NCBI RefSeq assembly: GCF_030013595.1
Contig: NZ_CP122772.1
Source of the DNA: Escherichia coli
GTDB lineage: Bacteria; Pseudomonadota; Gammaproteobacteria; Enterobacterales; Enterobacteriaceae
Length of the DNA: 64,000 nucleotides
Strand: one strand, 5' to 3'
The position numbers are program-made. Shown here piece by piece: positions 21,001 through 27,000 of the stretch (positions are counted from its first letter, which is position 1; every line of letters starts with the position of its first letter).

Positions 21001-24000
21001 TCAGTTGTTTTTCTGGCACGAGCATAGAACGACTCATCACCACACTGAATGGCAACCGATACTTCCTGGTATGCTTTTTCAGGCATGAACTGAACAAGAT
21101 AGTGTTGTGCGATCGCAAGGTAAACATTGCGCTCGTCGGTGCTGAGTGCGTTAACATCAGGCACACTGGCAGTCGGGATTATCGCAGTATGCGCAGTCAC
21201 CTTTGCACTGTTAAACGCCTTGCTTTTACGTGCGGAATCAATATCCAGCGACTGAGGAAATACTGATTTCAGGGCATCGATAACCTGCGGCGCTTCGCTG
21301 AATTGTTCATCAGAAAGATATGAGCAATCAGAGCGGTTATAAGTAATCGCTTTATATTTTTCACGTAATTGTTGCGTAATATCCAGCGTTTTTTGTGCCG
21401 TCATTTTGAACTTTTTGTTCATGTATTGCTGGAGTCTGACCAGGTTAAACGGCAACGGCGCAGCCGTTTTTTTATCATCAGTTGCTGCCGCTTCAACGGT
21501 AGCCGGTTTTCCTGCAAGGGATGCAGCCGTTCCGTCTGCCCACGCTTTATCGAGTAGGCAGCCTGGCGGCTGCGGCTTGTCATGGTCTGGAATTACCGTT
21601 ATAAAAAAAGATAATGTCATTGTCTTTCAGGTAGTTATATGGCCCGTTCAGCTAAACCCCGTAAACGCAAACCCGCACCACAAAGAAGCAAACTTCCCCG
21701 CTATGTTGTGAAACTTCATCCGGATGATTTTTTTGACGAAGAAGACGCTGAAGTTCTGCGCTTTGATAATTTTGACGATGCCGTTGAGTGCTGCGCTGAC
21801 CTGGGTATTCCGTTCTTTCTGGATGCAGGAAACAAAAAGCTGGTCTTCTGGTTTGTTCGTGTCGATGACGAAGGGTATCCGGAAATAGCCCGCTGTACGG
21901 AGCGGGAGTTTGCAACCATTCTTGCCGGTATCAGTGCCGGTGGTATGTACTGCCCGGAATGCGGCACAGTTCACTGGCCGGATGGCGTTACCCCACCCGT
22001 CTGATGCTTCCCCGTTTTGCCGATATTTTTCAGCAGGGTAACCGCTGGCTTAACTGGCTGGAGAAACAGCCGGAAGGTTCAGTGCGTCCGGTGGTGACTG
22101 AGTCAGTGACAAAAATCATGGCATGCGGGACCACGCTGATGGGCTACACGCAATGGTGCTGTTCGTCACCGGACTGTTGCCACACCAAAAAGGTCTGCTT
22201 CCGGTGTAAAAGCCGCTCCTGTCCGCACTGCGGGGTGAAGGCTGGCGCACAGTGGATACAGTATCTGCTGAGCCTGGTCCCCGACTGCCCGTGGCAGCAT
22301 ATTGTGTTCACACTTCCCTGCCAGTACTGGTCCCTGGTGTTCCACAACCGGTGGTTACTGGCAGAGATGAGCCGCATTGCAGCGGATGTGATACTGGAAA
22401 TCTGCCATCAGACAGATGTGGAGCCGGGGATATTCACGGTGATCCACACATGGGGGCGTGACCAGCAGTGGCATCCGCATATCCATTTATCGACAACTGC
22501 CGGTGGTGTGACGTCGGGCCACACCTGGAAAAATCTTCATTTTTACGCGCGTAAGGTGATGAGCATGTGGCGTTACCGGATAACGCGGCTACTGTCCCGG
22601 AAATACCCGGAGCTGGTAATACCGGATGAACTGGCAGTGGAAGGAAACAGCAAACGGGACTGGAATCGCTTCCTGGACACGCATTACCGCCGCGGCTGGA
22701 ATGTCAACATATCCAGGGTGATGGATAACGCCACACATGTGGCGGTGTACTTCGGCTCTTACCTGAAAAAGCCACCGGTGCCGATGAGTCGGCTGGAGCA
22801 TTATGCCGGTCAGGATGAAATCGGTCTGCGTTACAACAGTCACCGTACAAAACGGGAAGAATACCTGTTGATGAGTGGAGATGAGTTCATGGAAAGGTTC
22901 TCCTGGCATGTAGCAGATAAGGGGTTCCGTATGGTGAGGTACTACGGTTTCCTGAGTCCGGTGAAGCGCCGCTTACTGGAAGAAGTTGTGTACGTCATAA
23001 CGGAGACGGTGAGAAAAACGGCGATGCAAATCAGGTGGAGAGGGATGTATCAGAGGTTACTGAAGGTTGACCCGCTGAAGTGCATTCTGTGCGGAAGTCA
23101 GATGCGTTTTACGGGGCTGAAGCGGGGTTACCGACTGGCAGAGCTGGTCCTGATGCATGAGCGACTGGCACGACAGCAGGTGTGCGGCTGAGAGCCGCAG
23201 AGGGGAAGTTGCGTCCATTTTACCGGAAACGGAGCAAAAAACCGCCATTCATACCCTGTATCAATCAGTGTCATCCTGTTTAATAGTCGTTTCCGCTCAT
23301 ATGGTGCACAAGGGGTGTTGAAGAAACATCCGTTTTGTGGTGCTTTTTTAGTCTTTTGGGGATTTAAATTCCTATCGATGAACAGAAAGAACCTGGTAGA
23401 AGGTTACATTGGTTTGCTCATAGCCCCATGATGATACAAAGATATCACCAACAGAGACAGTATCATTTTTAAAAGTTAATACTTTCATTTTTAGCTCCCG
23501 CCCAGCTTGGGCTCTGGATGAAAGAGAATCTGTTTCCCTTTCCTGTGTTTTATTATACCTGCATTTGCAGGTATGGCAAGTTATTTTTTTACCAGCCTGT
23601 AAGACGGATGCATATTTGCTAATAACAATAAATACTGATATTCACCAATAGATAAAGAACGACTGGCCTTACCTGCACTTTCTTTCATCTGCCAGGAATT
23701 CAGTTGATAACCAAAAATATCAGCAGCTTCTTTAAGAGTAAGACCTGCCGCAACCCGCGCATTCTTTACTTCTTCAGGTGTAGGTTTATTCTGCATTTTC
23801 ATCCCCTTTTGTCAGACAATCACACAAAACCCCATTATCCAGAAGCATCAATGATGCCAGGTTGAGTTTTTCGTCCATTATCAATTTTCTTACTGTTTTC
23901 CTGCTTTTAGTTTTATCAATCGTCTTAACATATTTTAAGGCGTGAAAAACCGTATCCCCATCTTCATCCATCGTTCTGATTACATAGGAGTAATTACCTC

Positions 24001-27000
24001 TGTTTTTCTTAATTATCTTATCTTTATCCATATTATTCCTCATAACTAAAAAAGGGGCTTAATGCCCCTTTTTATCTATAACACGGTATGTAACCCTGTT
24101 TCCTGTGTAAATAAACGCGCTAACTGATCACAATAGATATTATCGAATCTTGAAATATCTTTAACTTCAACACCACGTACACGAGAAAATTTCACCTGGT
24201 ACGTATCAGTAAAATCCAGTTTAATTTTTACTAAGTTGATGCCTTTCATTGCAAAATTTGACGGCAAACGGAAAGTTAACCCACACTCACCGTTTTCATC
24301 AAAGTAAGAAAAACTTTTAGCACCAGTCATAACAATAAAACGATTACCACCAAGTTGACGTAAAATCTCTGTGGCTACAGATTTAGCATAGTTTTGCATT
24401 TTTAACCTCCCGCCCACTTTGGGCTCTGGATGAAAGAGAACCTGTTTCCCTTTCTTGTGTTTTATTATACCTGCATTTGCAGGTATTGCAAATTTTTAAT
24501 GCTCTCGCTCTGACTGTAAACAGTCAATCATTTGATGATTAATCTTAGCGCAAATCTGCGATCTGATAGACTTCGCTGCTTTCCCTTCTTCCAACGGCAA
24601 TAACGAGTAAAACGACTTTCTCATCAATGACTTGGTATACAAGTCTGTAGCCAGATGCACGAAGTTTGATCTTATAGCGATCAGCATGACCATGTAACCG
24701 GGCTGCGGGTACGCGTGGATTTTCCAGCCGTTCTGCCAGTTTCTTTTTGAATTGTTCACGGATGGTGTGGCCGAGTTTCTGCCATTCCTTCAGTGCTCTA
24801 CGGTCAAAAGCCAGTTCATAGGTCATCCAGGTTAACCTTCACAATTTCCGGGTTTTTCATGCGCTCATCAGCAACAGCGTTTAACTCAGCATCTTCAGCG
24901 AGTTCCCGATAGTAGGCGTAAAGTTTTGGTGGAACGCAATAGAACGCCGGTTCGTTTCGGTTCAGGATCGCAACAGCGTCCCCTTCACCTTCAGCTACGG
25001 TTCCCATAGGATTTTTTTTCAGGTCAGTAATACTGGCCGCTGTGGTTGTCAGAATTTGATAGCTCATAAGCCCTCCGCTTGTCTCATTGGCATAATAGCA
25101 TCTTTAAAAGCACTCTTAAAAGTGCTTATGTTGAGAAAAACATCAGAACAGGTGAGATATGGCTCTTTCCGACATCGCCTTAAAACGCTCTGTAACGCGT
25201 TCTGAGCGTTTTTTCCCGTTTCGTTGTGGTCAGCTACGGTTTAACGGTTTTTAACGCCGCTCAACGCTTTTTAGCGGCCTTGTTGCTGTGATCTGTTGCC
25301 ATGATCCGGATAGGAGTTCAATCTTGATCAAAATTTCCTCAAGGCAACGACTGTTTTGTAAATACCCTCTAAAACGCGCTGTATCGCATTCTGAGCGATT
25401 TTTTCGATTTCGCATGGTTTCACCATGGTTGTATCGAACGAAGCGGCAGAAAGCGATTCAGGGCTTCTCAGTGAAAGATCCAAAAAGGATCAATCAACGG
25501 ATCGTATGAGCTGAACTCTTCTGGTTTTGAGAAAGGAGACACCGCTCGCCGCAGCCGAACGACCGAGTGTAGCGAGTTAGTGAGCGAGGAAGCGGAATAG
25601 CACAGGGATTACATTAGGCACTTACGCACAGTGGTCAAAATATGAGCATATTGTTTTTATGTGTGGTTGTCTTGGTTCAGAGTGATCTGTCCTCCGGGTT
25701 TACGCAAAGTTATCCACAGGCGCTGTGAATTTTTTGTTTTGAGCAGAGTTATCCACAGATTTTTTGTGTTTTTTTGCTTATTAAACTTCTTGTTTTTAAG
25801 ATCTTAAATGTAGATCGGTAGATCTACTTTAAGATCTTTAACTTACTTTAACTTATTCTGCAAACATTGTGCCAGCTTTTTTATCAATAATTTCATTAAG
25901 ATAGGTGTTGTTTTTTGTCGCCTCAAAATGAAAGGTGGATGGGTACGCACTGAAAGGTGGATAGGTACGCACTGTAATTTTCATGAAAGGTGGATGGCTG
26001 CGCACTGAAAGGTGGATGGGTACGCACTGAAAGGTGGATGGGTACGCATTTTTCTGTTTTTATTCAGATATTCGTATCTTTGTATCTTCATTTCTTTAGT
26101 TCTTTATAGTGCTCTAATTTAACGTATGACGTTAAAAGGTGGATACCTGCGCATTTCTATCATATTGAATATAAATGATAAAAATTCTTTCATGTGATCA
26201 GTGTTTTGGTGGAAATACATAAGGTGGATAAACCACTTTACATATTTCCGCCTTTGTGGTTATGATTTCACCATCAGAACTTAAAAACCACAGGTAATGT
26301 ATGAACTTACTGAGCGTTACAAAGAAAACAAAAATTCGCCACAGAAATGAAATTAACAGCACATTCTCATCGTTGCCTTTGTCTGCCAGAAGAATTTTGT
26401 TTATGGCTATGGCGCAGATTGATTCACGTGAAGAGTTATCTGAGGGGGCAACCTTTCGTATTACGGCTCGGGAATATGCATTTATCGCTGATATTGATGT
26501 AACAGGTGCTTACCGGCAGTTGAAAGAGGGGGCAGAAGAACTTCAGGCCAGTGTTATTCGCATTCCTCGAAATCAACTTCTCACACCTCAGGGCAATCAA
26601 AGCTCTGGACATACGAAGAAGAGAGGTAAATTACCTTCTGATGCAGTCAGGCTTATGAACCTGACTGCGTTTTGTGATTATGTTGAAAGTGAAGGATATA
26701 TTGATATTGCTTTTTCACATGTCATTGAGCCATATATCACGATGTTAAAGGATTCTTACACTACTCAGGTTTTGATATCGTCTGTAAGACTCGCTGATCA
26801 AAATTCAAATATGCTTTATCAGTTTATCAGGAAACAATACAGCAGTGGTAAAAAGACATTTTTCGACATTGAAGTAGATGTATTAAAGGATGAACTTGAA
26901 TTATTCAGAATAGATAATGGCGAAAAAGTTTACCTTTATCAGAATTTTAAGGATTTTAATAAGGTTTTTCTGCAAAAAAATATTGAAAAAATAAATCAAT

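Follow-up and report, generated by a model that had tools for sequence, protein, structure and literature searches.

Duplicated promoter cassettes with a predicted Aca10-like autorepressor and a structured leader on an IncX1 plasmid backbone

The duplicated promoter cassette

The analysis concerned a stretch of 64 000 nucleotides (nt) of Escherichia coli DNA (contig NZ_CP122772.1, assembly GCF_030013595.1), referred to as the window. On an IncX1 plasmid backbone the window carries two copies of a promoter cassette, each consisting of a predicted promoter, a dyad-symmetric candidate operator that overlaps it and a leader with two hairpins. The gene for a 73-residue helix–turn–helix (HTH) protein lies between the copies. 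We consider it likely that these are leading-region promoter cassettes under the control of the HTH protein acting as an Aca10-like autorepressor. The features are listed in Table 1.

A repeat search of the window returned the two copies as a direct repeat of 98 nt (23488–23585 and 24400–24497) with 91% identity. The original prediction had described two 91-bp blocks (23489–23579 and 24401–24491) that differ at only a few positions and that each carry a near-consensus promoter on the minus strand with a 16-nt spacer; the blocks have seven mismatches, and both promoters were recovered by a promoter scan. An A-rich tract lies directly upstream of P1, and the stop codon of the HTH gene abuts its −35 hexamer. 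Both hexamers are kept in about 20 homologous cassettes.

A perfect 20-bp palindrome covering the spacer and the −10 hexamer had also been proposed. The dyad is present in both copies, but it consists of 9-bp arms, ATACCTGCA and TGCAGGTAT, around a non-symmetric AA centre and is thus self-complementary at 18 of 20 positions. It covers the whole spacer as stated, but only the first three bases of the −10 hexamer, and it includes the last base of the −35 hexamer. The 20-mer ATACCTGCAAATGCAGGTAT has exactly two copies in the window, even with three mismatches allowed, where none is expected by chance. Among homologues the two central bases are free (AA, TT, AT, TA, AG or GA) and the arms are kept, which is the pattern expected of a dimer reading half-sites 11 bp apart (centre to centre). 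Isolated ATACCTGCA half-sites at window positions 2209, 15110 and 31199 have no partner arm and were dismissed. The palindrome was also considered as an intrinsic terminator and rejected: only one copy was flagged, on the plus strand, and the coding strand has no U-run after the palindrome.

Table 1. Features of the cassettes and of the adjoining genes in the window (SD, Shine–Dalgarno sequence; ORF, open reading frame; aa, amino acids).
Feature	Position	Strand	Description and evidence
Promoter P1	23552–23579	−	−35 TTGCCA 23579–23574, 16-nt spacer, −10 TATAAT 23557–23552; promoter scan 11/12
Operator O1 (predicted)	23555–23574		ATACCTGCA-AA-TGCAGGTAT as read on the minus strand
P1 leader	23489–23551	−	GAAAGGGAA-ACAGA-UUCUCUUUC, GCCCA-AGC-UGGGC, SD GGGAG; about 58 nt past the predicted start
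Promoter P2	24464–24491	−	−35 TTGCAA, 16-nt spacer, −10 TATAAT; promoter scan 10/12
Operator O2 (predicted)	24467–24486		Same sequence as O1
P2 leader	24400–24463	−	GAAAGGGAA-ACAGG-UUCUCUUUC, GCCCA-AAG-UGGGC, SD GGGAG; covariance model 82.1 bits
107-aa ORF (YahA)	24076–24399	−	First P2 cargo gene; ORF; PHROG 9437, annotated function unknown
Terminator-like hairpin	24044–24072	−	GGGGC-AUUAA-GCCCC followed by U6, between the 107-aa and 81-aa ORFs
81-aa ORF	23786–24031	−	Overlaps the start of the HTH gene
73-aa HTH protein (YajA)	23581–23802	−	Candidate repressor, encoded at the end of the P2 operon; PDB profile, structure model, Foldseek
yagA-like gene remnant	23378–23488	−	P1-driven; 37 codons; translation and tblastn with the intact IncX1 protein
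IS91 copy	21549–23379	+	ORF121 and transposase; Pfam Y2_Tnp and Zn_Tnp_IS91; extent by comparison of copies

The HTH protein

A profile of the HTH family searched against the PDB matched Aca10 (PDB entry 7xi5) with an E value of 8e-5. The AlphaFold model of the 73-aa protein has a predicted local distance difference test score (pLDDT) of 88 and contains four helices (residues 9–18, 23–30, 34–41 and 52–61). In a Foldseek search with this model the top matches were Aca1, Aca10 and Aca2, and HipB, C proteins, 434 Cro and the C-terminal domain of MqsA were also found. Aca10 was matched with a template-modelling (TM) score of 0.77, a root-mean-square deviation of 2.0 Å and 32% identity. The model and its structural neighbours place the protein in the XRE (Cro/C1) superfamily. 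The homologue encoded by the IncI2 plasmid R721 passes the Pfam model of the Xre-like antitoxin HTH (PF20432; 30.2 bits against a cut-off of 25.8).

Aca10 is an anti-CRISPR-associated dimeric autorepressor from Pseudomonas citronellolis (PDB entry 7XI5); it forms a symmetric dimer, and its operator is a 19-bp palindrome that overlaps the promoter of its own operon (PMC9410881). Mutations in three of its residues have been characterized: R44Y abolishes DNA binding, Q37W weakens binding, and G49Y abolishes both the dimer and binding (PMC9410881). Residues Q37, R44 and G49 of Aca10 align with Q38, R48 and G53 of the 73-aa protein, and all three are invariant in the family; Q22 of Aca10 is not conserved, the residue here being L23. 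The protein is called Aca10-like rather than Aca, since general family and PDB searches recognized no anti-CRISPR gene among its cargo.

A pOXA-48-type IncL plasmid encodes a 159-aa protein (L055, 4743–5222) with two tandem HTH domains that share 41–45% identity with the 73-aa protein. This protein may be a single-chain pseudo-dimer.

Operator and HTH variation across plasmids

Plasmids of types IncX1, IncX3, IncX4 and IncI2 (R721) each hold two to four copies of the cassette, with an operator of their own and a diverged HTH homologue (Table 2). It had been suggested that the palindrome could be sought in other IncX-like plasmids. A complete IncX1 plasmid has precisely two copies of it; IncX3 and IncX4 plasmids have operator sequences of their own. 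Helix 3, the recognition helix, also differs among the four types. In every type the operator lies between the −35 and an overlapping −10 hexamer, with its right arm over the latter; one of the controlled operons ends in the HTH gene, preceded by a small partner gene that overlaps it. This co-change of predicted operator and HTH protein is the strongest computational test available. The IncX3-type operator is also found in Pantoea p4.

Table 2. Candidate operators and HTH homologues in four plasmid types.
Plasmid type	Operator	Copies	HTH identity	Helix 3
IncX1	ATACCTGCA-nn-TGCAGGTAT	2	Reference	QLNSWQMKE
IncX3	(A/T)TACCATCA-nn-TGATGGTAT	2	59%	TLSAWQAKE
IncX4	ATACGACTT-aa-AGGTCGTAT	2	49%	GLRTWQKKE
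IncI2 R721	ATAGGTCAG-tt-CTGACCTAT	4	46%	SPRTWRRKE

The YagA and YahA proteins of R721 are 70–77% identical to the IncX1 cargo (77% for the YahA homologue), and the R721 operator is wholly different. Cargo that is conserved behind a different operator points to exchange of the control module around it. Homologous cassettes were further found on an IncFII plasmid of Salmonella Weltevreden, on 24-kb MOBC/MPF_T plasmids, on Pantoea stewartii p4, and in Erwinia tracheiphila and Xenorhabdus entomophaga; all of these retain the −35 and −10 hexamers and both operator arms.

A genome-wide scan with the 18-base IncX1 operator pattern yielded 39 loci, most of them chance matches in unrelated taxa, which served as a negative control for co-occurrence with the HTH gene. 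The leader-bearing element was present at six of the 39 (L027, L031, L032, L034, L039 and L037). Five of these six encode an HTH homologue with 82–100% identity; the sixth, L037, is a contig of 439 nt and too short for the gene. None of the remaining chance-like matches encodes an HTH homologue. An HTH homologue is encoded at all fully examined loci where the cassette is complete in its promoter, operator, leader and downstream gene, L005 running off the start of its record; truncated promoter–operator remnants at L006 and L011 are accompanied by no HTH gene. The distant HTH homologue P0020 (59% identity, L047) has no recognizable operator nearby. In a metagenomic sequence (L050, 1963–2085 and 1–30) that encodes an HTH protein of 64% identity, a degenerate dyad, ATATACGCA-at-TGAACATAT, was observed; hairpin 1 of its leader has the same position and a wholly different sequence (AGUCAGGAA..UUCCAGACU), and hairpin 2 and the SD are retained. 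HTH homologues are encoded by 4242 of the 72,556 plasmids in PLSDB.

The two-hairpin leader

The conserved leader, the hairpin GCCCA-AGC-TGGGC and the SD GGGAG are present as originally described, but folding gave two hairpins rather than one. Hairpin 1, the larger and the nearer to the 5′ end, has a 9-bp stem and starts 2–4 nt past the predicted transcription start; hairpin 2 adjoins the SD. The single-sequence fold of the P1 leader has a z score of about −3.5, and when 20 distinct leaders were folded singly nearly all showed both hairpins at matching places. The distance from the −10 hexamer to the ATG is 63–69 nt in full-length copies. In one copy from a 24-kb plasmid (L007_a; L007, 3968–4054) it is 59 nt because 6 nt are deleted, with loss of the 3′ arm of hairpin 1; this copy, whose operator and second hairpin are undamaged, is a natural leader mutant.

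RNAalifold found almost no structure in a plain MAFFT alignment, which was out of register, and the leader structure was taken instead from the single-sequence folds and a model-guided alignment. A covariance model was built from ten leaders and used to scan the window and the IncN plasmid R46. It found only the two copies in the window (83.8 bits for the P1 leader), recovered the copies of IncX3, IncX4 and R721, and had no match in R46. In the model-guided alignment 92.5% of the cells are in standard pairs, compared with at most 68.6% for shifted partners. Nine of the 17 pairs are changed on both sides, in 29 cells, and shifted partners gave at most five such pairs; none of 500 shuffles reached the observed pairing or covariation values. 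The changes include GAAAG/CUUUC to GAGAG/CUCUC, G–U to G–C and, in R721, GCCCA/UGGGC to GCCGC/GCGGC. The wobbles are G–U in the mRNA sense, which favours a structure in RNA over one in the transferred DNA strand. An Rfam scan of 23300–24700 gave no match over either leader, and sub-threshold matches of the small-RNA and terminator types fell on the terminator hairpin only.

The leader also lies upstream of ccgAII in the IncI-gamma plasmid pN367 (L002, 4999–5090), behind a different promoter and without the palindrome, and no HTH homologue was found in the complete pN367 record. About 500 IncI-type plasmids have a match to the two-hairpin leader. Its occurrence in pN367 without operator or HTH gene suggests that the leader is a mobile module in its own right, and it is treated here as a putative separable expression module, independent of the HTH repressor. 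From its position, hairpin 1 probably stabilizes the 5′ end of the mRNA, and hairpin 2, next to the SD, probably sets the translation rate.

Genes behind the two promoters

The P2 gene order given in the original prediction (a 107-aa ORF, an internal terminator, an 81-aa ORF and the 73-aa HTH ORF) agrees with the sequence and its ORFs, and the gene behind P1 is indeed cut by IS91, only its first 37 codons being left. The hairpin between the first two P2 genes leaves no space for a separate promoter. A terminator-like hairpin likewise follows the first gene of an operon at about 5760–5790 of L001, where there is no room for a new promoter. A strong hairpin after the first gene of each operon suggests graded expression, in which the first cargo gene would be expressed at a high level and the rest, including the repressor gene, at a lower one.

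A counterpart of the 81-aa ORF precedes the HTH gene in IncX1, IncX3, IncX4, R721 and other plasmids. Neither the 81-aa protein nor its IncX3, IncX4 and R721 counterparts gave a significant family or PDB match, and its structure model, computed from close homologues only, was unusable (pLDDT 51). Searches of Pfam, NCBIfam, PHROGs and the PDB returned no informative match for YahA, the 81-aa protein or YagA, and the names in the source records are only hypothetical. In IncX3, IncX4, the 24-kb MOBC plasmids and Pantoea p4 (L053, 1353–1868; L054, 1279–1794; L007, 2421–2954; L027, 4388–4633), the product of the first gene after the cassette is a DnaJ (J-domain) protein, an unusual early cargo.

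When intact, the yagA-like product has 109 residues; the IS91 junction in the gene follows GTTC. The other end of this IS91 copy abuts an N-terminally truncated topB-like ORF (20145–21620). The window contains at least five full copies and one partial copy of the IS91 family, with 90–100% identity (15179–16994, 21549–23379, 32022–33836, 44191–44940, 56620–58434 and 58448–60263); this rolling-circle element has rearranged the plasmid extensively.

Plasmid context

The segment is IncX1 backbone with more than 99% identity to hundreds of IncX1 and hybrid plasmids, in agreement with the plasmid-backbone setting proposed earlier; its likely position in a leading region beside the origin of transfer (oriT) had not been part of that proposal. 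In the intact IncX1 plasmid NZ_CP022072.1 seven small genes lie on the same strand between a relE/parE toxin–antitoxin pair and taxA (ddp1) with the MobP1 relaxase gene; P2 stands ahead of genes 1–3 and P1 ahead of genes 4–7. Both IncX1 and IncX3 have the nic-like motif TATCCTG|C, which we take to be the MOBP nic consensus, in the gap from the last small gene to taxA and on the opposite strand to the genes. From the position and strand of this motif, the gene cluster would be the first DNA to reach the recipient, with the transferred strand serving as template. Both properties are typical of leading regions, and the locus is presumably the plasmid leading region adjoining oriT.

On the other side, six 22-bp iterons (AAAGGTGGATGGGTACGCACTG) at 25931–26156 precede the gene for a 278-aa replication initiator (26301–27137) and are the IncX1 origin. 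The last iteron holds ATACCTGCG, which differs by one base from an operator half-site, probably by coincidence. The stretch from the relE/phd pair to the iterons has short direct repeats at 25181–25223 and 25370–25412 (43 nt, 84% identity) and a further one at 25699–25774 (37 nt, 73% identity).

Interpretation

Starting from the cassette anatomy, homology, conservation and covariation described above, we infer promoter activity, dimerization, operator binding, repression, burst kinetics and a role for the leader as follows. Once the plasmid is duplex in a new cell in which the repressor is absent, P1 and P2, both predicted to be strong sigma-70 promoters, would fire at full strength. Early `establishment' proteins would then be made, YahA from P2 and, when its operon is intact, YagA and three more from P1. 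The product of the HTH gene would accumulate more slowly, because this gene ends the P2 operon and lies past a partial terminator. The HTH dimer would bind both operators, exclude RNA polymerase and shut off both operons. This would amount to negative feedback preceded by a burst, similar to the action of Aca proteins on anti-CRISPR operons. The earlier suggestion that a single dimeric protein, for which the HTH protein was the candidate, represses a small regulon is strengthened computationally by the Aca10 homology, the co-variation of operator and HTH protein and their co-occurrence.

Several observations weigh against this reading. The match of the single 73-aa sequence to Aca10 is modest (E = 0.022, residues 6–60), and no Pfam model matched the protein at E ≤ 0.01. 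In every operator the −10 hexamer also holds the outer ATA/TAT in place, its first bases being those of the outer TAT in the right arm, so that some of the likeness to the Aca10 site is forced. Co-occurrence of HTH gene and operator is partly due to synteny of the whole block. Covariation was counted on a leader alignment that had been fitted to the model, and compensatory changes are absent from the short helix in which UCC pairs with GGA of the SD. The nic motif has eight bases and should turn up by chance about once in 13 kb, and with so short a motif the leading-region placement stays presumptive. No cargo gene resembles a known anti-defence protein in Pfam, NCBIfam, PHROGs or the PDB, so that the `establishment' role is assigned from position.

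The covarying leader raises the question of whether the HTH protein acts twice, repressing at the DNA operator and also binding the leader hairpins to block translation. Precedent exists in Aca1 and Aca2, which bind structured motifs in the 5′ untranslated region (UTR), Aca2 having been shown to act on such mRNA hairpins and Aca1 for binding only, and Aca10 operons have a predicted covarying RNA motif (PMC13551039). The layout here is the same, with covarying hairpins of which the second abuts the SD. We nevertheless think dual control unlikely. Hairpin 1 is similar in IncX1, IncX4 and R721 despite their wholly different operators, the leader hairpins are unlike the operator half-sites, and in pN367 the leader precedes ccgAII with neither operator nor HTH homologue; moreover, purified Aca10 has so far not been seen to bind the predicted RNA motif (PMC13551039). 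A toxin–antitoxin pair of the MqsRA or Xre-antitoxin type, formed by the 81-aa and HTH proteins and with a mainly autoregulatory palindrome, appears more improbable still. The two genes overlap and always travel together, the R721 HTH protein passes the antitoxin-type Pfam model, HTH homologues have a sub-threshold Pfam match to MqsA, and the PDB sequence matches include the MqsA C-terminal domain. Yet neither a toxin family nor a solved structure matched the 81-aa protein, the HTH protein is one small domain with no obvious toxin-binding part, the IncX1 pair sits behind another gene and a terminator without a promoter of its own, and the operator serves one to three further operons that lack the pair.

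A role of the palindrome and hairpins in single-stranded DNA at conjugation, as a promoter or priming signal of the Frpo/ssi type instead of a duplex operator, strikes us as very improbable. The presumed leading region, with the transferred strand as template and three hairpins possible in it, would suit such a signal. The −35 and −10 hexamers, however, flank the dyad and are not brought together by it, so that no long imperfect hairpin forms them by pairing in the single strand, and extrusion would destroy the promoter. The element is only about 98 nt long, and known single-strand promoters are far longer. The hairpin 1 wobbles would be C–A mismatches in the transferred strand, and the operator sequence varies with the HTH type, as a structural DNA signal need not. 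Repression of both cassettes by the Aca10-like protein, with the leader as a separate element, is the reading that we retain.

Two further readings are advanced tentatively, and we think them rather unlikely. The two-hairpin leader may represent an undescribed class of cis-regulatory RNA, independent of the repressor, in the leading regions of many enterobacterial plasmids; the class may extend over IncX1, IncX3, IncX4, IncI2, IncI-gamma and others, and the leader could bind a host or plasmid factor or act as a stability or translation switch for the first minutes after entry. The diversification of operators and HTH proteins may work like phage immunity, with the resident repressor silencing an incoming plasmid of the same type and not those of other types.

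The practical interest lies in the breadth of the HTH homologues and in the uncharacterized early genes. IncX3, IncX4 and IncI2 plasmids are main vehicles of blaNDM-5 and mcr-1. If the locus is an Aca-like burst-then-off switch, YahA, YagA, the DnaJ-domain protein and others would be candidates for a role in anti-defence or establishment, and the repressor would be a possible handle for blocking plasmid establishment. The four natural operator–repressor pairs would form a set of orthogonal parts.

Comparison with known systems

The control proposed is of a known kind and not a new mechanism; the example on an IncX1 plasmid is new, and the searchable literature yielded no account of this regulon on IncX or IncI2 plasmids. 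C proteins of restriction–modification systems and phage Cro/CI are likewise small XRE-fold dimers with dyad operators over their own promoters, but their structural match to the HTH model is weaker (TM about 0.5), and there is no restriction–modification or lysogeny context here.

The original prediction had drawn a likeness to the repeated control elements of other plasmid backbones. This stands as an analogy with the CUP/ArdK regulon, reportedly described by Delver and Belogurov in 1997, but not as DNA or protein homology. The CUP repeats of the IncN plasmids pKM101/R46 are described as promoter-bearing elements before several leading-region operons, all of which, including that of its own gene, are repressed by ArdK (PMC6289460, PMC5371602). 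Both systems thus have repeated promoter elements before leading-region operons and one plasmid-encoded repressor, predicted in the present case. The CUP repeats of R46, however, are 300–450 nt long and GC-rich, they share no sequence with the cassettes, and their cargo is unrelated. CUP homology had been considered on account of the ccgAII annotation and was rejected: in R46, blastn-short with both cassettes as queries matched nothing but chance 10–14-mers, and BLASTP of the HTH protein against R46 ArdK gave an E value of 2.2, so that the two are not homologous.

According to a 2026 survey, Aca proteins often control neighbouring operons, and the layouts described for Aca families combine a DNA motif on the promoter with an RNA motif that begins where transcription starts, the motif being repeated on nearby operons (PMC13551039). 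The present cassettes resemble those of Aca1 and Aca2 in having a promoter-overlapping DNA motif and covarying 5′-UTR hairpins that are repeated on adjacent operons; they differ in that the RNA motif appears uncoupled from the repressor and does not follow the operator type.

By homology and layout, as far as these can be judged from sequence and predicted structure, Aca10 is the closest known system. The relationship is distant yet detectable in both. The proven Aca10 operator, ATACGCTCA-T-TGAGCGTAT, overlaps the promoter of its own gene, and the minimal site ATACGCTCATTGAGCGTAT covers the promoter of the acrIC7-acrIC6-aca10 operon, in which aca10 is the last gene (PMC9410881). In its layout the 20-bp dyad over the spacer and −10 hexamer follows this pattern of a promoter-overlapping palindrome of about 19–21 bp. 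Both regulators are single small HTH domains (73 residues here, 65 in Aca10), both operators (predicted in our case) have two 9-bp arms starting ATAC...CA over a strong promoter, and in both the regulator gene closes the operon and a structured leader is predicted just past the transcription start. The differences are that the operator centre is 2 bp here and 1 bp in Aca10, that the inner half-site bases are not the same, and that no known anti-CRISPR gene was found in the operon by general family and PDB searches, which included no dedicated anti-CRISPR library. The setting is a presumed leading region of an Enterobacterales conjugative plasmid rather than a Pseudomonas mobile element, and, unlike in Aca10, the same operator recurs on a second operon here and on up to four in R721.

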